Shown here: positions 4,474 through 26,175 of the stretch, piece after piece | Numbering within the stretch: position 1 is the first letter of the stretch | Layout: every line of letters begins with the position of its first letter | Assembly (NCBI GenBank): GCA_964572885.1 | Contig: CAZNFC010000001.1 | Span: 1 to 39,069, forward strand | Reading direction: 5' to 3' | Length of the DNA: 39,069 bases | From: an uncultured Methanosarcinales archaeon | GTDB lineage: Archaea > Nanobdellota > Nanobdellia > Woesearchaeales > UBA10107 | Notes under the pieces: generated by a model | Databases searched by the model: none | What the model saw: the letters and a program-made list of their open reading frames with translations, nothing else | Told to the model about the DNA's origin: nothing | Translations under genes and position numbers: made by a program

Positions 4474-5988
4474 TTAAGGAGTCATCAATCCTCTTGCTTT
4501 CTTGAATATGGTGTATATCAATGATGTCAACTTTGCATTTCCTTTGGCCATATCTTTTCTTTTTTCCTCTATCTCTCTTGCTAATTTGATATCTGATTTT
4601 CCTCTTCCGGGAATAAAGCTTTTTGCTGCTCCTTTGAATCCTGAAACGATGTCTCCAATCGGGCCGAATGGCTTTTTGCTTTTATCACTGAACATCTCTT
4701 TCACTTTTTCTCTTGCAGAGTCCATGTTCGGAGAAGCTCCTGTATCGACAAGATTCTTGGCTAATCTGTATCTTTCTTCGTCTTCGCCGAATTTCTCCTC
4801 GTATTCTCCAAGATATTTTCTTAGATCTTCTTCAAGGAAGTCCATCGAGCTTTCTATCGAACTGTCTATGCTTTTCAGAAGTTCGAAATCTTCTGCCATC
4901 CTTACTTTTTTATAATCTGCTACCTCTTTATCTGTCCAGACATATCCTCTGAAAGTCATTTCAGCACGGCCGATATGAGTCGGTCCTCTTTGATAATCCT
5001 GACCGGTATTCATTACTGGTCTTGTCCTGAAATAGAAATGGACTAAAATGCATGATCTTGGATAACCTGGCTTTTCCGCGGGCATCTTAGCCAAGAATTC
5101 AACTTCAACGACTGAACCTTCAAATGCTCCTACGATATCTGCAGACATCTGAGTCTCAGGATCCATCCCTAATCTTTTTATATTTCTAAGATACGGCTTT
5201 ACCCAGTCAACATAAAGTTTTATCGCATTGTAATGCTGCCTTAGATAGCTTATCGTGAATTTTTTCTTTGCTTTAATCTGCTTATCAGTTGCATCTCTCC
5301 ATGCAGTGTATTGCTCTAATTTCCTTACCAAAACTGATTTTACATCTTTATTGAATTCCAATTTATCAACGTATTTTGAAACATTTTCTAATTTGAGTCC
5401 AGCAGGCGCATCAAAGAAAATAATAGGCAGTGTAGCATATCCTACTTGAGAAGCTAATCCATATACTGAACTTGCTTTCAATCCCTGCGGTCCGTTATCG
5501 ACAAAATCAATCCATAAACCTTTCAATGATTTTTCTGCGCCGTCATCAGGTGTTCCTGTCGTTTTTCCTGATGCCAGATCATAAAGTTTCTCTCTCTCAT
5601 CTAATAATTGTATGTCTCTTACTATCTGGAACATCTCTTTTACCATCTTTCCTATTGTTGCCATATATTGCGATGCAATATTCTGCTGTGCACCCAATCT
5701 TTGCTGCGCAGAACCGAAGAATGCACTTTGTTCCGATGCAGTAAATGTATCGACTATCTTTTCCACATCAGCAAATCCAAAGTCAACTAAATAATCCTTG
5801 AACCAGAAATATAATTCTTCAACTGATTGTCCAAAACTTTCATACACCATGTAATGTCTTTTGACAGGCTTAGGATAATGAGTCTCTACTAATTCATCAG
5901 GCTTGAATTTTCCTCTTACTATCTCTATCTTCTCTATATCCTTGAACTTCTTCTTTATTATCTCTTTTACTTTGTCTCTGTCTACCAT
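4474..5988 (-). CDS. conserved-looking hypothetical protein (504 aa), function unknown
   Basis: Long uninterrupted ORF with non-repetitive globular sequence, translationally coupled on both sides. I recognise no family. Confidence 0.75.
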   Translation of the reverse strand: MVDRDKVKEIIKKKFKDIEKIEIVRGKFKPDELVETHYPKPVKRHYMVYESFGQSVEELYFWFKDYLVDFGFADVEKIVDTFTASEQSAFFGSAQQRLGAQQNIASQYMATIGKMVKEMFQIVRDIQLLDEREKLYDLASGKTTGTPDDGAEKSLKGLWIDFVDNGPQGLKASSVYGLASQVGYATLPIIFFDAPAGLKLENVSKYVDKLEFNKDVKSVLVRKLEQYTAWRDATDKQIKAKKKFTISYLRQHYNAIKLYVDWVKPYLRNIKRLGMDPETQMSADIVGAFEGSVVEVEFLAKMPAEKPGYPRSCILVHFYFRTRPVMNTGQDYQRGPTHIGRAEMTFRGYVWTDKEVADYKKVRMAEDFELLKSIDSSIESSMDFLEEDLRKYLGEYEEKFGEDEERYRLAKNLVDTGASPNMDSAREKVKEMFSDKSKKPFGPIGDIVSGFKGAAKSFIPGRGKSDIKLAREIEEKRKDMAKGNAKLTSLIYTIFKKARGLMTP

Positions 5989-5990
5989 GT

Positions 5991-6128
5991 TTATTTTGTC
6001 AGAACAATCTCACCTCTTTCATTCAATAGAATCTTTACTTTGTTTCCTTTGGCCCATCCCTTAGCTTCAATGATGGCTTTAGGAAGCGTTATTTTGTATT
6101 GTTTGCTGTCAAATTGAAGCTTGACCAT
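5991..6128 (-). CDS. AbrB/MazE/SpoVT-type DNA-binding protein (45 aa), first gene of the operon
   Basis: Hand translation gives MVKLQFDSKQYKITLPKAIIEAKGWAKGNKVKILLNERGEIVLTK, the typical swapped-hairpin motif (I-T-L-P-K ... GW..G..V). It is below the ORF-track size cut-off. Its stop lies 2 nt before the next ATG. Confidence 0.7.
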   Translation of the reverse strand: MVKLQFDSKQYKITLPKAIIEAKGWAKGNKVKILLNERGEIVLTK

Positions 6129-6280: not shown

Positions 6281-7111
6281 ATGGAAATAAAAAACATAAT
6301 AGAGAAAGTAAGAATAAAGAAGTTCAGGAATCTTGATGAAGAAGCCGTAAAGCACAAGATAAATGAGTTTCTCAAAAGAAATCCAAAGATAAGATTGAAT
6401 GAATTGAAAGAAAAATCATCTGATCTGAAAAAAATAATAAAATATGTAAAAAAAGAGATGCATCATTCTTATGGAGCATTTCAGAACGATATTTCAAAAA
6501 GAGAGAGATTACTTGATGAATTAAAAAGAACAAATTCTATGTCTGATGATTTTATTGAACTACATAAGAAAATATTGTCAACTCATAAATCAACAAAAGA
6601 AAGATTGATGATCTATGATAAATTATATGAGGCTATATTTTCAATTATAGGAAGGCCTGAATCAATATTGGATATAGGCTGCGGATTGAATCCATTTTCT
6701 TTGCCATGGATGGGATTGAATAAACTTACATATATAGCATCTGAATTCAATAATGAAGACAATAGATTCATATCTGAATACTTTAATTTTATATCTGGTT
6801 TGTATCAAAATTACGAGCTGAAAACACTAAGGATCGATCTGAATAAAGATTTTGATAAACTGAAAGGGATAAAAGTTGACGCTGTATTCTGCTGGAAAGT
6901 GTTTGATTTATTAGATTTTAAGAAGACAGAGAATATCGTTAAAAGCTTGAATGCAAAGTGGTTGGTCGCTTCGTTTTCAACAAAAACATTGGGAAACAGG
7001 AAGATGAATTCACCAAGAAGAGCCGGATTCCAGAAGATGCTGAGGAGATTGAATTTAGAATATAAAACATTGAGCTATGAGAATGAGATATTTTATGTTG
7101 TGAAATTGTGA
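6281..7111 (+). CDS. FmrO/ArmA/Rmt-family 16S rRNA methyltransferase-like protein
   Basis: Matches my memory of ArmA along its length: IIEKVRIKKFRNL vs KKILESKKYENL, STHKSTKERL...ILDIGCGLNPFSLPWM vs HSSTNERV...ILDFGCGFNPLALYQW, VASFSTKTLGNRK vs VISFPIKSLSGKE, and C-terminal NEIFYVV vs NELVYI. Start is placed at ATG 6281 (MEIKNII), with CTTTAAAAC about 27 nt upstream; ATG 6245 is an alternative. Confidence 0.75.
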   Translation: MEIKNIIEKVRIKKFRNLDEEAVKHKINEFLKRNPKIRLNELKEKSSDLKKIIKYVKKEMHHSYGAFQNDISKRERLLDELKRTNSMSDDFIELHKKILSTHKSTKERLMIYDKLYEAIFSIIGRPESILDIGCGLNPFSLPWMGLNKLTYIASEFNNEDNRFISEYFNFISGLYQNYELKTLRIDLNKDFDKLKGIKVDAVFCWKVFDLLDFKKTENIVKSLNAKWLVASFSTKTLGNRKMNSPRRAGFQKMLRRLNLEYKTLSYENEIFYVVKL

Positions 7112-8805: not shown

Positions 8806-9519
8806 ATGCAAAAGGTCAATTATACTGCAATCATAATCACTGCTTTGATCATTCTCGGAGCATTTGGCGCATTAGTTTATGTATTCCCAAGCCAGAAGAG
8901 AACAGTCCAGGCGACAGGAACGTCGCAGATGACTGTTCCTCCTGATAAAGCAGTAGTCTATGTCCAGGTACAGACAACAGCTGATAAAGCAGAAGATGCA
9001 AAGAACAAGAATTCTGAGATAACCAACAAAGTGCTGTCGGCATTGGAAAGCTTGGGAGTCGATAAAGCAGACATTGAAACTGAAAATTACAATATTTACC
9101 CAGAATACGATTACATGCCATCAGGACAGAAATTCAAGGATTATGCAGCGACAAATTCTATAAAAGTATCAGTAAAAGATTTCGGCAATGTAGGAAAGGT
9201 CGTCGATGCTTCAGTAAATGCAGGAGCGACGATAAACTACATAAATTTCGAATTATCAACTGACAAGCAAAATCAATACAAGAAAACTGTATTATCAAAA
9301 GCAGCAGAAGATGCAAAAAGCAAGGCTGAAGCAATCGCTACAGGTTCGGGACAGACTCTTGGAAAATTAATCTCAATCACGACATCTGACTATAGCTATG
9401 TTCCTTATCCTTTGTTCAGAGCTGATTCTGGAGTTGCTGTAAAAGAAGCAGTAACAAACATTCCTTCTAAAAATCTTGACATAACCGCTACGATTACGGC
9501 AACATATGAGATAAGATAA
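8806..9519 (+). CDS. SIMPL-domain (DUF541) protein with N-terminal membrane anchor
   Basis: N-terminal hydrophobic helix, then the typical DUF541 pattern: ...VPPDKAVVYVQVQT...AEDAKNKNSEITNKVLSALESLGVDKADIETENYNIYPEY...ATNSIKVSVKDFGNVGKVVDASVNAGA..INFELS...AAEDAKSKAEAIA. Confidence 0.85.
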   Translation: MQKVNYTAIIITALIILGAFGALVYVFPSQKRTVQATGTSQMTVPPDKAVVYVQVQTTADKAEDAKNKNSEITNKVLSALESLGVDKADIETENYNIYPEYDYMPSGQKFKDYAATNSIKVSVKDFGNVGKVVDASVNAGATINYINFELSTDKQNQYKKTVLSKAAEDAKSKAEAIATGSGQTLGKLISITTSDYSYVPYPLFRADSGVAVKEAVTNIPSKNLDITATITATYEIR

Positions 9520-10671
9520 ATGGACAAGGATTCTAAGAAAACAGTAAAGACTTTTGCATTAGCTTCTTTCCTTAGCGATATGGGTTCTGACATGATCTTT
9601 CCCATCTGGCCTTTATTTGTAACGACAGTGCTTAATGCGAATGTCGCAATTCTCGGGCTTATTGACGGGATAAGCCTTGCGATTGTCTCATTGTCGCAGG
9701 CTGCATCTGGATATCTTTCTGACAGGATAAAAAAGAGAAAAGTATTCATATGGCTCGGATATATGTTTTCATCTCTTGCAAGATTAGGATATGCAGGCTC
9801 GACAATATGGCAGCACTTAGTTCCTTTCAGGATGATCGACAGAGCAGGAAAGATAAGAGATTCTCCGAGAGATGCAATAGTTGCTGATATTTCAGAGAGA
9901 TCAAATAGAGGTAAAAATTTCGGAATAATAAGGACGATGGATAATTTAGGCGCAGTAATAGGAATAATAACGACATTGATCATATTCGGAATACTTGGAG
10001 TATCTTACAGGACTCTGTTCCTGATCGCTGCTGTGCCTACATTCATAGGCTCAATGCTTGTCCTTTTTGCAGTCAAAGAAAGGACAAATCACATAAAGCT
10101 GTATAAAGGAATATCTTTCAAGGATATAACTCCTAACTTCAGGCTGTTCATGATATTGAGCACAATATTTGCTTTGGGAACGTTCACATATTCATTCCTA
10201 ATAGTCTATGCAAATCAATTTGGATTTGCAGCTCCTGTCGTTCCTTTGCTATACTTGCTGTTCACTGCTGTTGCTTTTGCCTCGACTTTTTTCTTCGGAA
10301 ATCTTGCGGATAAAATTGGAAGAAAATATGTTTTATTCATGTCCTTTGCATTTTGGGGATTATCATGTCTAAGTTTCATATTTTCAAAACAGAAATACGG
10401 GATTGTTCTTGCTTTTGCACTTTACGGACTGCATCTTGGAGCGATAGAACCTGTGCAGAAGGCGTTTGTATCTGAATTAGCAAATAAAAAATACAGGGCA
10501 AGCAGCCTTGGAGGATTCCAGATGGTCACAGGATTGGTCGCACTTCCTGCATCATTGATAGCAGGGATATTATGGCTTAGAATCGGAAGGTTCACTCCTT
10601 TCTACCTTTCAATTGCGTTAACTTTATTAGCATCAGTCATGCTTTTATTCGTAAAAGAGGATAAAAAGTGA
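9520..10671 (+). CDS. MFS-type transporter
   Basis: 383 aa and about 10-12 hydrophobic segments. The loop GYLSDRIKKRKVF after TM2 and the second-half GNLADKIGRKYV correspond to the MFS D-R/K-x-G-R-R/K motif. Its start abuts the stop of the upstream gene. Confidence 0.8.
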   Translation: MDKDSKKTVKTFALASFLSDMGSDMIFPIWPLFVTTVLNANVAILGLIDGISLAIVSLSQAASGYLSDRIKKRKVFIWLGYMFSSLARLGYAGSTIWQHLVPFRMIDRAGKIRDSPRDAIVADISERSNRGKNFGIIRTMDNLGAVIGIITTLIIFGILGVSYRTLFLIAAVPTFIGSMLVLFAVKERTNHIKLYKGISFKDITPNFRLFMILSTIFALGTFTYSFLIVYANQFGFAAPVVPLLYLLFTAVAFASTFFFGNLADKIGRKYVLFMSFAFWGLSCLSFIFSKQKYGIVLAFALYGLHLGAIEPVQKAFVSELANKKYRASSLGGFQMVTGLVALPASLIAGILWLRIGRFTPFYLSIALTLLASVMLLFVKEDKK

Positions 10672-23129: not shown

Positions 23130-24247
23130 TTATATGTGTTTCGCATCTATATCTGTGAAATTTTTGATATACCTGTCGAGCTCGATATCTGAAATCTCGC
23201 TTGGAAATGATAGTTCTATTTCTTTGCCTAATCGTTTCCTTAGCTTGTAAGTATTGGCTTGCTTTGCGTATGCCATCCAGCCTTGAAGTCGCTCGTATAT
23301 CTCATCATAATCAATTACTTTGGAATCGTAATCTTGCTTGAACTGTTTTATCCTTCTCTTTGTTTTTCTCAGATTTGTCCTTCTTAGAAGTTTGTGGTAA
23401 TAAAACGATCTAAAGCCCAAGAAATTTATTCCTCGCTCTAATTTGATTATTTTCGATTTATTTGGATGCAGTTCTATAAGAAGATTTTTCCTAATAAACT
23501 CGTTGATTTTATCTTTGTAGTATTCAAGCATATTCTTATCGTTATGCAAAATCACGAAGTCATCGACATATCTTATGTAATATTTTACTTTTAATTCGTG
23601 TTTTACAAAATAGTCTAATTCATTTAGATAGACATTGGCGAAGAATTGGCTCGTTAAGTTGCCAAGGGGCATCCCCCTCTGGGAAGAGCGTGTAGAGAGA
23701 GAGAGAGAGAGCAGTTTGAAAGTATTTTTTTGATTAGCCAAATGATTCTATTGTCCTTAATCTTATTCTTAATTATACTGATAAGAACACCATGGTCAAC
23801 TTCTTCAAAATAGTGCTTTATATCTGCCTTCAATACATAGGTTTCTTTTGTATTATTTCTGCTTGCTTTCCTTTTGAAGTAATCAAATCTATTTAACGCG
23901 TTTAAAGTTCCTTTGCCTATCTGATTGGCAAATGAATCGTAGATGAAGCTTTTGCGAAAAATAGGTTCAATGATGTTACATAGAGCATGGTGAACAACTC
24001 TATCTCTGAAATCAGACTTGCTTATCTTCCTTGTCTTTGGATCCCTTACTATGAAATTAACTAATGGTTTTGGTATATAAGAATGTAGCAACAATTCGGT
24101 TCTTAGTTGTTCAAGATTTTCTTTGAGATTATTTTCAAATTCAATAACATATGGTTTCAATGTTTTTCTTCTTCTTGCTTTCTTGAAAGCGAGCTCTAAA
24201 TTCTCGTAAGAACAAAGATTTTCAAATAAATTTCCGTGTCGCTTCAT
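23130..24247 (-). CDS. DGR reverse transcriptase, interrupted by a frameshift inside a (CT)9 tract
   Basis: Track ORFs 23654..24370 and 23130..23741 together carry all RT motifs. These are FIVRDPKTRKIS and FRDRVVHHAL (motifs 1-2), SFANQIGKGTLNAL (3), GMPLGNLTSQFFANVYLNELD (4, with the DGR-typical LGxxxSQ), YIRYVDDFVIL (5) and the thumb LQGWMAYAKQANTYKLR. The start is placed at ATG 24247 (MKRHGNLFENL...). Removing one CT unit gives a continuous reading frame of about 371 aa. Confidence 0.9.
23695..23712 (-). repeat. (CT)9 dinucleotide microsatellite (AG9 on + strand) at the RT frameshift point
   Basis: agagagagagagagagag read directly. It encodes the SLSLSL stretch seen in both overlapping ORFs. 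Confidence 0.95.
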
Positions 24248-24282
24248 TGATAAGTATAAAGTCTTAGTATTCAAAGCCATTT

Positions 24283-24366
24283 CACGAGAGTGGCCATTGT
24301 TGTTGTCGAAGTTGTTGTTGCCATTGACATGGAACCTACCGTTGTTGTGGTTGAACCTGACAGCCC
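24283..24366 (-). repeat. DGR template repeat (TR), AAC/AAT-rich
   Basis: Coding-strand sequence: GGGCTGTCAGGTTC AAC CAC AAC AAC GGT AGG TTC CAT GTC AAT GGC AAC AAC AAC TTC GAC AAC AAC AAT GGC CAC TCT CGT G. It lies 36 nt upstream of the RT ATG. I count about 26 adenines by hand. Confidence 0.9.
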
Positions 24367-24472
24367 ACACCCTTATAGCCAGTTTATTGTATAATCACTG
24401 CCACTTCACAGTTTCGTTTCCTACTCAGTGTTGTAGCTGCATTTTATAACCAACAATGTGTCATAATACGCA

Positions 24473-24520
24473 ATTTCGGCAGAGCCGAAATGCGCCCATT
24501 TGGACTTTGTCCAAATTGGG
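24473..24520 (-). promoter_or_regulatory. two adjacent stem-loops in the VR-TR spacer (candidate DGR RNA 5' structure or target-gene terminator)
   Basis: ATTTCGGC-aga-GCCGAAAT (24473-24491; 8-bp stem) and CCCATTTGGAC-ttt-GTCCAAATTGGG (24495-24520; 11 bp with a one-base bulge). Both are unusually GC-rich for this window. Confidence 0.5.
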
Positions 24521-24600
24521 AACTGACGTGTGGCCTCGAATTTTCACCAATGAATTGTTTCATCAGCTCAAACCAAGACAAATAAGAAAATGTTAGAATC

Positions 24601-24608
24601 TATTTAAA
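24601..24608 (-). promoter_or_regulatory. TATA-like box (TTTAAATA on minus strand) just downstream of the target-gene stop; candidate promoter of the TR-RT transcript
   Basis: Same box type as the gene promoters in this window. It lies about 235 nt upstream of the TR, and there is no properly spaced box directly upstream of the RT ATG. Confidence 0.4.
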
Positions 24609-24616
24609 AATACTGC

Positions 24617-25354
24617 TTATTTTTTGCGTTTCGCGCCTTCGGCGCTCACAGACGAACGCACCCCACGAGAGAGGCCAAAGTTGCCGAAGTCGAAGTCGTC
24701 GTAGCCATAGACATGGAACCTACCGTTGATGTGGTCGAACCTGACAGCCCTTTCAGGGTATGATTTTCTTGAGCTTTGGTCTGGTGTCCAAAGTGCAATC
24801 TTTTCTGGATTCATTTGAGATAAATGTTCAAGTGTTTCTGCGATTTTCTTATCACTATCTTTTGTATTAAACAATGCTTGCAAATAAGCAACTGTTTCTT
24901 TTGATTTTAATGCTTCTGTTAATCTTGTTCCTTCATATCTTGGAACAACTTTAAGTTCAATTACTGTCGGCTTTACAATAGTGCTTCCGAAATTATGAGT
25001 TATTTTTGCGCCTAAATCATTTGGATTATATGAATTTCTTGTGCTTGTTACTTCCCAATTATCGTTGAAATCTTTTCTTAAGGAGTCAAGGACTTCTTTT
25101 GGAGCTGAAACAGCTCTGTATACATCAGGAGCTGAAATCATTTGTCTTTTTTGCTCATTAAAATATGCAATCCAGTCCTTTTGCGTTAAACGTCTTCCGT
25201 CTAATGCTGGTAAAGAATCTATTGAAACTAATCCATTTGAAGAAACTGGCAATGAATTTAAGTATTGAACAACTGCTTGGGATAAATCTCCCTTTCTAGC
25301 CTTTTGAGCTAATTCGTATGCTTTGTTGCTTACTGGTATTTTGAGTGTTTTCAT
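24617..25354 (-). CDS. DGR variable (target) protein, 245 aa, VR at C-terminus; no obvious signal peptide
   Basis: ATG ORF with an AGGTGG Shine-Dalgarno sequence about 8 nt upstream. The C-terminal ...ERAVRFDHINGRFHVYGYDDFDFGNFGLSRGVRSS corresponds to the TR-encoded AVRFNHNNGRFHVNGNNNFDNNNGHSR. Confidence 0.9.
   Translation of the reverse strand: MKTLKIPVSNKAYELAQKARKGDLSQAVVQYLNSLPVSSNGLVSIDSLPALDGRRLTQKDWIAYFNEQKRQMISAPDVYRAVSAPKEVLDSLRKDFNDNWEVTSTRNSYNPNDLGAKITHNFGSTIVKPTVIELKVVPRYEGTRLTEALKSKETVAYLQALFNTKDSDKKIAETLEHLSQMNPEKIALWTPDQSSRKSYPERAVRFDHINGRFHVYGYDDFDFGNFGLSRGVRSSVSAEGAKRKK
24626..24659 (-). promoter_or_regulatory. GC-rich hairpin just 3' of VR (IMH/cruciform-like target-recognition element candidate)
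   Basis: Coding strand GCGTT cgtctgtga GCGCC gaa GGCGC ga AACGC. The inner 5-bp GC stem with a GAA loop is at 24633-24645 and the outer arms are at 24626-24630 / 24655-24659. It is present next to the VR only, not next to the TR. Confidence 0.55.
24664..24750 (-). repeat. DGR variable repeat (VR)
   Basis: Coding strand GGGCTGTCAGGTTC GAC CAC ATC AAC GGT AGG TTC CAT GTC TAT GGC TAC GAC GAC TTC GAC TTC GGC AAC TTT GGC CTC TCT CGT G. It has 11 substitutions versus the TR, all at TR adenines, plus one extra codon. Confidence 0.9.
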
Positions 25355-25474: not shown

Positions 25475-25615
25475 ATGAAGATGCTCAGGATAGATGACAA
25501 AATCGCTAAGGAGCTGGATGAGCTTAAAGAGTTCTACAGAGTCAATTCATATGATGAAGTCATCAGAATGTTAATCAAGAAAATCAACGGCGAAACAATA
25601 GAAATAATCGTATAA
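25475..25615 (+). CDS. small VapB/RHH-like antitoxin paralogue (46 aa)
   Basis: Hand translation gives MKMLRIDDKIAKELDELKEFYRVNSYDEVIRMLIKKINGETIEIIV. It shares the I.L.(D/E)..(K).L...K.....(Y/F)DE.IR.L pattern with the next ORF and is below the ORF-track cut-off. Confidence 0.55.
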   Translation: MKMLRIDDKIAKELDELKEFYRVNSYDEVIRMLIKKINGETIEIIV

Positions 25616-25619
25616 CAAA

Positions 25620-25820
25620 ATGGCAACAACAATAGCGCTAAAGGAAGAAACGAAAGACATTTTGGAGCATGCAAAAGAAGAGTTAAAAGCAGAAACTTTT
25701 GATGAAGCAATAAGGAAATTAGTCATCAACATGAAAAGGACGAGAATCTCTTTCTTTGGGATAGGGAAAGGAAAGATCAAGGGAGAATTTGTGAGGGAAG
25801 AAATTGACCGTTTTGCTTGA
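25620..25820 (+). CDS. vapB: VapB-type antitoxin
   Basis: MATTIALKEETKDILEHAKEELKAETFDEAIRKLV... is typical of archaeal small antitoxins. It overlaps the PIN toxin gene by 17 nt. Confidence 0.65.
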   Translation: MATTIALKEETKDILEHAKEELKAETFDEAIRKLVINMKRTRISFFGIGKGKIKGEFVREEIDRFA

Positions 25821-26175
25821 TTCTTGGGCTTGGATTGAATATATCAAGGGCTCTAAATTCGGAAACGAAGTTAGGAGATATATAGAGGACGATGAAGAAA
25901 TAATAATCAGTTCAATAAATGTTTCAGAGATATATAGAAAACTTCTTGTAGATATGCCTGATGATGCAGACAAAATTATTACGATGGTATTGAATAGGTC
26001 TTTCTTTGTTTTTTCTGATGTTGAAATATCTCTGAATGCTGCCAAAATAAAGCATGAAAAAAAGATGGGCATGGCTGATGCAATTGTATTGGCGACAGCG
26101 ATGTCACATAAAGCAACAGTTATTACAGGAGATAATGATTTCAGAGGATTGGACAATGTCAAAATCATATCTTAA
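25804..26175 (+). CDS. vapC: PIN-domain ribonuclease toxin VapC
   Basis: VLLDSWAWIEY (first acidic Asp), SINVSEIY, MGMADAIVLATA and VITGDNDF give the four-acidic-residue PIN layout. The start codon is TTG. Confidence 0.85.
   Translation: MTVLLDSWAWIEYIKGSKFGNEVRRYIEDDEEIIISSINVSEIYRKLLVDMPDDADKIITMVLNRSFFVFSDVEISLNAAKIKHEKKMGMADAIVLATAMSHKATVITGDNDFRGLDNVKIIS

Follow-up and report, generated by a model that had tools for sequence, protein, structure and literature searches.

The DNA analyzed here comprises 39,069 nt of contig CAZNFC010000001.1 (assembly GCA_964572885.1), in the following referred to as the window, and harbors on its minus strand a diversity-generating retroelement (DGR) whose reverse transcriptase (RT) gene is interrupted by a dinucleotide repeat. 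A target (variable-protein) gene encoding 245 aa (open reading frame, ORF, 25354..24617) is followed on this strand by two RT-like ORFs (24370..23654 and 23741..23130). The variable repeat (VR) is located inside the 3' end of the target ORF, and the template repeat (TR) is non-coding and ends 0–33 nt before the RT start. An earlier note on this DNA had placed all these elements at the same positions of the minus strand, and this arrangement holds; its TR length of 84 nt had to be corrected to 89 nt, and the spacer it described is a structured RNA. The distance of 36 nt given there between TR and RT gene also required revision, since the in-frame ATG at 24280 overlaps the TR end, leaving a gap of 0 or 33 nt.

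The repeat search returned a 62-nt direct repeat of 90% identity (24305-24366 vs 24689-24750), and gapped alignment lengthened the pair to a TR of 89 nt (24366..24278, minus strand) and a VR of 92 nt within the 3' end of the target gene (24750..24659, minus strand). The TR contains 29 adenines, 28 of which occupy codon position 1 or 2, and ten AAY codons (Y, pyrimidine) in the VR frame. All 14 mismatches between the repeats fall on TR adenines (14/29; A>G eight times and A>T six times), and none of the 60 internal non-adenine positions differs (Fisher p = 1e-7, 5' boundary mismatch included). Mismatches at non-adenine positions at a rate similar to that at adenines, named beforehand in the earlier note as evidence against a DGR, were accordingly not found. 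Furthermore, the pair shows a single 3-nt indel, which lies within an AAC AAC AAT run and is therefore placeable as one additional codon; such 3-nt TR/VR indels are known for related lineages (PMC5758913). In-frame length differences between TR and VR also recur in relatives, where they amount to 3 nt (L094, L104, L156) or 9 nt (L154) and are located in AAC-codon runs (related loci and homologous proteins are denoted by L and P numbers, respectively). These length differences are most readily explained by template or replication slippage on the AAY repeats. No further VR-like copy was detected within the 39-kb window.

Regarding cis-acting signals, the core of the initiation of mutagenic homing (IMH) site, TGGGGT, is located at the 3' end of the VR (24665..24660, minus strand), and its counterpart IMH*, TGAAAT, at the 3' end of the TR (24284..24279, minus strand). 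Inside the target ORF, the VR is followed by a nested hairpin (24625..24660, minus strand) composed of the outer stem TGCGTT/AACGCA and the inner stem GCGCC-GAA-GGCGC with a GAA triloop (24645..24633, minus strand), the latter being based on the predicted fold and a match to the literature. Since the fold energy of the hairpin is not better than that of shuffled sequences (z = -0.48), it was accepted because it matches published features and not on thermodynamic grounds. According to Paul et al. 2015 (PMC4372165), nanoarchaeal DGRs combine TGGGGT as IMH and TGGAAT as IMH* with GRA-triloop hairpins located in the target gene. In the related locus L003, TGGGGT and TGGAAT are present, and a GTCCGC-GAA-GCGGAC hairpin occupies the equivalent place.

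The interrupted reverse transcriptase gene

The 5' part of the RT gene (24280..23654, minus strand) encodes an N-terminal extension, the fingers and motifs 1-3, and terminates past the repeat at a stop codon (23656..23654). Start candidates are ATG 24280 (MALNTK), which overlaps IMH*, and ATG 24247 (MKRHGNL), both on the minus strand. The 3' part (23693..23130, minus strand) encodes motif 4 (GMPLGNLTSQ), the YVDD motif and the thumb, and is open to the TAA at 23132..23130. Both RT-like ORFs match the Pfam family RVT_1, covering profile positions 7-106 and 111-204, respectively. The (CT)9 repeat (23711..23694, minus strand) resides in the variable loop between the conserved N178 and GMPLGNLTSQ, a loop that is between 4 and ~33 aa long among intact homologues. 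Because (CT)9 shifts the frame by 2 nt, the RT as assembled cannot be produced as a single polypeptide; the frame would be restored with (CT)8 or (CT)11. The repeat is the only lesion in the RT gene of ~1.1 kb, and both halves are open. It is also the longest dinucleotide run in the window. The sole other dinucleotide run of at least five units is (TC)5 at 5589-5598, residing in a 504-aa ORF (4474..5988, minus strand) without Pfam match.

Removal of one CT unit, the repair suggested in the earlier note, restores a frame of 371 aa that can be aligned end-to-end with 18 homologues at 62-69% identity. The repaired RT keeps every column that is invariant among these homologues, including FRDRVVHHAL, GKGT, GMPLGNLTSQ and YVDD, i.e., the motifs previously read as DGR-typical, all of which are invariant in the family alignment. 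The absence of an intact RT reading frame from the window thus describes the state of this gene and not that of the family, both halves being otherwise whole. Among sequences in the PDB, 8ub7_A scores highest (328 aa, E 2.5e-46, 162 bits). This entry was taken as the Bordetella enzyme bRT because its numbering fits residues R74, I181 and Q187 described for that enzyme (preprint 10.1101/2023.10.23.563531). The window RT conserves the equivalents of R74, Q187 and the catalytic YxDD, and has Leu at the I181 position. All further PDB matches reach at most 85 bits and represent group II intron, retron-type and Cas-linked RTs, so that, by PDB match score, the RT is placed next to the DGR enzyme and not outside the DGR clade, the placement that the earlier note had named as contradicting its reading.

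Alternatively, the RT could belong to a retron or a defence system, or be left over from a group II intron, and lie beside a repeat by chance, given that NCBIfam, which contains no DGR model, yields sub-threshold matches to group II intron, Drt3a and retron models and that source annotations call some relatives 'retron-type' or 'maturase'. However, none of the group II, Drt3a, retron and AbiA models comes close to its cut-off score (e.g., 156 vs 300), bRT clearly leads among the RTs of known structure, motif 4 is of the LGxxxSQ type and the TR/VR differences are adenine-specific. Moreover, intron RNA domains are missing, the Rfam matches being limited to RT-16 and a sub-threshold RT-11. Such an origin is accordingly regarded as hardly credible, and the element is almost certainly a DGR.

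The RT belongs to a very large family, as at least 8000 relatives were obtained in the protein search and at least 585 in GTDB genomes, every one of the latter being labelled DPANN or unclassified archaeal metagenome-assembled genome (MAG). Genes flanking the element encode archaeal core functions (Lhr helicase, S19e, L31e, Cbf5 and a Rad50-like protein), and Cbf5 shares 72-75% identity with its best named relatives from Candidatus Woesearchaeota and Nanoarchaeota MAGs. These sequence relationships point to a Woesearchaeota/Nanoarchaeota-like host. Previous assignments of the DNA to a DPANN-like archaeon, based on the sequence alone, and of the locus to a DGR are therefore substantiated by the relationship of Cbf5 together with the presence of S19e, L31e and Lhr, by the adenine-only mismatches and by an RT closest to bRT.

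Compared with the DGRs of Nanoarchaeota DUSEL4 single cells and groundwater DPANN (PMC4372165), the RT is 67-68% identical to those of SCGC AAA011 (P0004, L001, L002, L037), and the order target, RNA/TR, RT is shared. Likewise shared are the IMH TGGGGT with a GRA-triloop hairpin inside the target ORF, a short AAY-rich VR positioned near but not at the C-terminus of a ~250-aa protein, and the lack of a clear Avd beside the RT. Differences concern the IMH* (TGAAAT in the window, TGGAAT in the nanoarchaeal elements) and the interruption of the window RT by (CT)9. The locus represents a chromosomal DGR of nanoarchaeal type in a Woesearchaeota-like genome and adds one more ordinary representative to a very large DPANN family. 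The earlier statement that DGRs occur in nano-sized archaea agrees with the literature, in which the same IMH and GRA-hairpin features were published in 2015 (PMC4372165). The view that the DGR is noteworthy in itself can no longer be maintained, considering the at least 8000 RT relatives and the features already published; what is genuinely unusual is the interruption of the RT by a repeat. As additional observations on the family, two close RT homologues, P0085 (563 aa) and P0105 (548 aa), possess an additional C-terminal PF14493 domain, showing that fusion to another module occurs in some DPANN DGR RTs. Several DPANN contigs encode two DGR RT copies a few kb apart, namely L125, L037/L058 (one contig, AQRL01000028.1) and L144 (two TR/RT-16 sets).

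Repeat tracts in the RT genes of related elements

RT genes of related loci were also screened for tracts. In L003/L004, the target of which is 53% identical to that of the window, the RT is broken in the same loop by G12. A third assembly of this strain, L005, features G11 instead of G12, with not a single substitution over 1827 nt. Seven assemblies of the G12/G11 strain encode an identical target protein, which agrees with a frozen VR. Three Logan contigs of the L003 strain (L209, L210, L211) stop inside the RT before the poly-G tract, and L005, the only short Logan contig reaching the tract, ends 134 nt beyond it; these contig ends may reflect heterogeneity of the tract or poor coverage of G-rich sequence. 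Furthermore, the intact homologue P0016 (locus L206) carries (GA)12 in the same loop, in frame.

A metagenome scan for tracts of G8 or longer located 3-33 nt upstream of ATGCCNYTNGGNAAYYTNAC returned at least 120 stretches. Among the matches listed, 76 non-redundant loci with G8-G12 were distinguished, and the frame was readable in the 64 of them for which the N-terminal half could be placed. The tract is in frame in 16 and out of frame in 48 (75%) of these loci, a ratio near the 1/3 : 2/3 expected of a freely slipping tract, and the out-of-frame share already amounts to 67% at G8. Apart from the tract, out-of-frame RT genes appear whole, with no stops in their N-terminal halves and a full C-terminal half of ~155 aa in 47/50. 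The TR/VR pair is kept in 15/20 out-of-frame loci with enough flanking sequence (195 mismatches at A vs 11 at non-A) and in 6/7 in-frame loci (81 vs 3), the two groups being indistinguishable.

Long tracts are concentrated in this gene class. Over 161 loci, 90 G/C runs of at least eight were located inside RT genes (178 kb) and two outside (778 kb); for an unselected genome set, the corresponding numbers are eight and two. Tracts also occur elsewhere in RT genes, namely at the N-terminus (G10 in L025 and C13 in L042, both out of frame, and G10 in L073, in frame), in the leader (G9 in L054), in a second loop (L062 G8, L067 (AG)10 in frame) and at the C-terminus (C10 in L071). IMG/VR scans for (CT)5, (GA)5 and G8 upstream of MPLGNLT yielded no matches.

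These findings bear on the question of whether the window simply harbors a dead element, in which the RT was lost by a chance frameshift, the cassette is decaying and the repeat is without function. The out-of-frame RT of the assembly and the 3-nt indel between TR and VR would fit such a scenario. However, no second lesion is present in the ~1.1-kb RT gene, all invariant residues are kept and 0/60 non-adenine TR/VR positions have drifted, and 3-nt TR/VR indels recur in relatives and related lineages (PMC5758913). Moreover, a random lesion would hardly consist of an 18-nt dinucleotide run, and independent repeats occupy the same loop of relatives with otherwise intact genes. Decay of the element is therefore considered improbable.

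A similarly low probability is assigned to an assembly or sequencing artefact, according to which the true tract would be (CT)8 or (CT)11, the RT intact and the DGR ordinary and active. Repeats are difficult to assemble, short Logan contigs of the related strain break off at the poly-G tract or ahead of it, and the window represents a single assembly. Against an artefact, the out-of-frame share of 67% already at G8 indicates a weak dependence on tract length, and two assemblies made independently agree on G12. Furthermore, 18-nt dinucleotide repeats are not known as a typical site of short-read errors.

The concentration of repeats in one gene class at permissive sites, the nearly random distribution of all phases, the absence of other decay and the tract lengths differing between samples are the reasons why (CT)9 was interpreted as a slipped-strand switch. 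Based on these features, the locus is probably a nanoarchaeal-type DGR whose RT tract acts as a slipped-strand phase-variable switch, being OFF in this assembly. Switching of the tract would presumably be reversible, influence retrohoming and be of selective value.

Several observations weigh against this interpretation. The 75 best RTs of the genome set are all in frame across the loop, this set being biased to intact genes because it was ranked by match quality. Length polymorphism between samples was encountered in essentially one strain (G12/G11, both OFF) and in the paralogue pair L116/L125, and few near-identical locus pairs are informative. Dinucleotide examples number just three, the statistics originating from poly-G relatives, and exact look-ups of the window proteins gave no second assembly of the organism, so that the (CT)n length derives from one assembly. 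In addition, no other homopolymer is as prone to sequencing problems as poly-G, and to our knowledge phase variation by simple sequence repeats (SSRs) is poorly documented in Archaea. Finally, the poly-G tract is followed by CGA in 63/76 and by CGAAC in 34/76 of the non-redundant loci among the matches listed, whatever the downstream frame (L086-L165 and L003, e.g., L003 7582-7598; L094, L103, L131, L165). This frame-independent G(n)CGA(AC) hints at a function at the nucleic-acid level beyond a simple switch model, and G(n)CGAAC may represent a dedicated slippage or recoding signal.

Conserved Arg-Thr codons were rejected as an explanation of CGAAC, as the motif is found in each of the three possible phases with respect to the downstream frame, and a hairpin 5' of the G tract was discarded as a general feature, being confined to a subclade. 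G(n)CGAA(C/G) was also observed in a different RT loop (L062, ~967) and once on the opposite strand (L071, ~1031). The two RT copies of L125 (6026-6072 and 10716-10759) differ at the tract, one featuring GGGGAG8 (in frame, interrupted) and the other G11 (out of frame).

The conserved motif is of particular relevance for the possibility that the tract is decoded at the RNA level by RNA-polymerase slippage or ribosomal frameshifting, which would provide low, tunable amounts of full-length RT at any tract length, the gene never being truly OFF. The occurrence of all three phases among otherwise intact genes is what would be expected if the phase were irrelevant, and the conservation of G(n)CGA(AC) regardless of frame, together with the hairpin just 5' of the tract in some loci, suggests an RNA or DNA signal. 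Likewise, a +2 ribosomal shift on (CU)n would keep perfect codon-anticodon pairing. However, offsets of 1 and 2 would need two different shift directions, the window lacks a canonical slippery heptamer followed by a pseudoknot, and the stimulatory-looking hairpins are limited to a subclade and positioned upstream instead of downstream of the tract. Tract length also differs between samples at the DNA level (G12 vs G11), and we know of no dinucleotide tracts serving as efficient substrates of transcriptional slippage. Recoding is accordingly judged unlikely, and the phase-variable switch remains the preferred interpretation.

RT-16 RNA, target protein and genomic neighborhood

The region between target gene and TR, previously described as a 250-nt non-coding spacer, corresponds to the structured RNA RT-16 (Rfam RF03019; 24578..24370, minus strand), which was identified as a full-length model match with 62 bits (gathering score 50, E 2.4e-7). 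RT-16 ends 3 nt ahead of the TR, contains a 51-nt insertion with two additional hairpins, and its region folds better than shuffled sequences (z = -3.3). The RNA was also found in 15/19 related loci (53-103 bits), mostly directly 5' of the TR on the RT strand. In L009 (1727-1989), L025 (1704-1824) and L031 (1773-1980), RT-16 is located on the strand opposite the RT, ~1.0-1.3 kb upstream, which implies that the template unit of some DPANN DGRs is arranged divergently. The motifs RT-1 to RT-19 were described as orphan motifs near RT genes, only RT-10 being tied to a DGR, as the BPP-1 spacer (Weinberg et al. 2017, PMC5737381). A TATA-like box (TTTTTAAATA, 24610..24601, minus strand) ~27 nt upstream of the RT-16 5' end is a putative promoter of an RT-16/TR/RT transcript, its spacing being in line with archaeal promoters in general.

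Using RNAduplex, a pairing between RT-16 and the post-TR spacer was located. The RT-16 strand ATTCGAGGCC (24541..24532, minus strand), just 5' of a conserved ACACG, and the 10 nt just 3' of IMH*, GGCTTTGAAT (24278..24269, minus strand), form 10/10 pairs in the window. Over 36 non-redundant loci, a mean of 7.83/10 pairs was obtained, compared with 6.39 for shuffled partners, and 0/20000 shuffles reach 7.83, a test that is inflated by kinship among the loci. The six variable helix positions alone yield 4.17 pairs vs 3.02 for shuffled partners. Compensatory changes among loci comprise CCAAGGCC/GGCCUUGG, CUAGGGCU/AGCCCUAG and GUUGGGCU/AGCCCAAC. Because the 24541..24532 segment also serves as the 3' arm of the Rfam P1 hairpin of RT-16, two alternative pairings are possible. 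A further candidate, pairing of the RT-16 CACG with the CGUG at the TR end as a primer:template duplex, was rejected since the TR end varies without compensating change. The ATG within IMH* opens a conserved 11-codon extension (MAL.TK......) before the consensus RT start MKR.GNL (window 24247-24280, minus strand; L001 ~6085-6125; L003 ~7005-7040). As the nucleotides of this extension are those of the post-TR helix strand, RT coding overlaps RNA pairing.

In BPP-1, RNAs flanking the TR pair with each other and position the primer (preprint 10.1101/2023.10.23.563531). Because both TR flanks pair here as well, RT-16 probably serves, by analogy with this phage element, as the scaffold of the DGR RNA. 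Compared with the Bordetella phage BPP-1 system (bRT-Avd, TR and Sp RNA, the latter represented by Rfam RT-10), the window features a homologous RT with conserved equivalents of R74, Q187 and YxDD, the same adenine-specific TR-to-VR pattern, an IMH with downstream hairpin, and a structured RNA flanking a TR whose two sides pair. The systems differ in that the large RNA of the window (RT-16) lies upstream of the TR, whereas that of BPP-1 is the 140-nt Sp located downstream, and in that the distance between TR and RT ORF is just 0-33 nt in the window. Moreover, the window lacks Avd, has Leu in place of Ile at I181, and derives from a cellular archaeal host and not from a phage.

No Avd homologue was detected in the window by tblastn with the PF05635 protein of L001 (E > 1 throughout), and no Avd-sized helical ORF adjoins the element. 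Avd is not universal among archaeal DGRs (PMC4372165), so that its absence does not exclude DGR membership. In L001 (SCGC AAA011), a PF05635 gene (Avd-like / 23S rRNA intervening-sequence (IVS) protein; 9236-9616, minus strand) is located 2 kb from the DGR RT and immediately precedes the rRNA operon; an equivalent gene is missing from the window.

The target protein could not be assigned to a family by Pfam, NCBIfam or PDB sequence searches, nor by a member-wise Pfam scan. Sixteen target homologues of ~250 aa from DPANN share the frame 'ERAVGF..GRFHV.G...FDG..GRSRGV' and are variable at AAY positions, the C-terminal ERAV...SRGV block constituting the diversified region of the family. For the AlphaFold2 model of the target (predicted local distance difference test, pLDDT, 86), Foldseek returned weak matches to C-type lectins in the PDB (SP-D, PLA2R and mannose receptor; E 0.18-0.5, probability <=0.66) and no match in BFVD. 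A C-type-lectin-like fold, as for AvpA (PMC5006420), is plausible on the basis of this model. The window target shows no detectable sequence similarity to AvpA, and the AvpA motifs are absent. Residues ~1-45 of the target (25220-25354, minus strand) resemble a ribbon-helix-helix element consisting of a short strand and two helices, e.g., 'ISLSNKDTRILERLLESGEFKTPDEILRKAINDYLSVL' in P0124. This resemblance is an impression, Pfam giving no match; if correct, the protein would combine a DNA-binding module with the diversified domain.

Adjoining the target gene, a gene for a PIN-domain (VapC-like) toxin is encoded on the plus strand (25804..26175). It is preceded by two small antitoxin-like ORFs of 46 and 66 aa, and this group (25475-26175, plus strand) is transcribed divergently from the DGR target gene. 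The earlier note had supposed a small accessory island at this site, to which the PIN toxin is adjacent. Compositional support is lacking, as the GC content of the DGR region (0.33-0.38) resembles that of the remaining window and does not distinguish the region, so that the island is no more than putative.

A proposed switch on hypermutation and its implications

Based on the findings described above, the following sequence of events is proposed. By analogy, a transcript starting near 24578 would carry the RT-16 RNA, the 89-nt TR and the RT mRNA. The RT-16 segment would pair with the 10 nt following the TR, bracketing the template much as in the Bordetella phage element; of this step, the covarying helix itself was observed. 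The RT, with no Avd partner encoded nearby, would copy the TR into cDNA with misincorporation opposite adenines, the footprint of which is visible in the 14/14 differences at A. As in characterized elements, the target gene would then have its VR exchanged for the cDNA at the TGGGGT/GAA-hairpin site in its 3' end, whereby ~10 AAY codons of a putative ligand-binding surface would be rewritten. The (CT)9 tract in its permissive loop may function as a contingency locus, in which slipped-strand mispairing alters the number of units: (CT)8 or (CT)11 would switch RT and hypermutation ON, and other lengths would switch them OFF and freeze the current VR. The same design appears to recur in DPANN DGR RT genes in the form of poly-G, poly-C, (GA)n and (AG)n tracts. 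Whether DPANN DGR RT genes in general represent contingency loci, in which poly-G/C, (GA)n, (AG)n or (CT)9 tracts in permissive loops or at the N-terminus stochastically toggle hypermutation such that most cells are frozen and a minority diversifies, is a proposition to which even chances are given.

Bacterial SSR contingency loci include phase-variable Type III mod methyltransferases ('phasevarions') and poly-G genes of Campylobacter and Neisseria. In common with these, the DPANN RT genes contain a homopolymer or dinucleotide tract at a permissive site within the coding region, occur in all three phases with otherwise intact ORFs, differ in tract length between samples in the G12/G11 strain and are strongly enriched for tracts as one gene class. 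Unlike in the bacterial examples, the putatively switched gene, as judged from sequence, encodes a mutagenic RT, which would make the tract a switch on hypermutation, and the hosts are DPANN archaea. We know of no counterpart of the conserved CGA(AC) after the G tract in bacterial contingency loci.

SSRs in the RT gene and the helix between RT-16 and the post-TR spacer are not mentioned in the studies on nanoarchaeal DGRs and AvpA (PMC4372165, PMC5006420). A full-text literature search likewise found no description of repeats in DGR RT genes, the 2017 DPANN/CPR (candidate phyla radiation) survey being outside its reach, so that mention there is possible. These comparisons suggest that the repeat-interrupted RT with family-wide evidence, and RT-16 as TR-bracketing RNA of an Avd-less archaeal DGR, go beyond the known kind of DGR.

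For the annotation of archaeal genomes, the tracts imply that many DPANN DGR RTs will be recorded as pseudogenes or split genes and escape DGR callers, L003 being without any RT gene call. Furthermore, by analogy with BPP-1, RT-16, so far an orphan Rfam motif, would act as the scaffold of the DGR RNA in these elements, and attempts to reconstitute an archaeal DGR lacking Avd could start from the covarying helix that brackets the TR. The regulation of DGRs is an open problem, as cells must avoid overwriting a useful variant and the constant cost of retrohoming. If the interpretation is correct, a repeat-driven ON/OFF switch in the RT gene would be a simple, heritable and reversible answer to this problem. 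It would amount to a two-tier bet-hedging, provide DGR activity with its first described genetic switch and Archaea with a clear example of phase variation by SSRs, and extend slipped-strand phase variation, mainly known from host-adapted bacteria, to ultra-small archaea.

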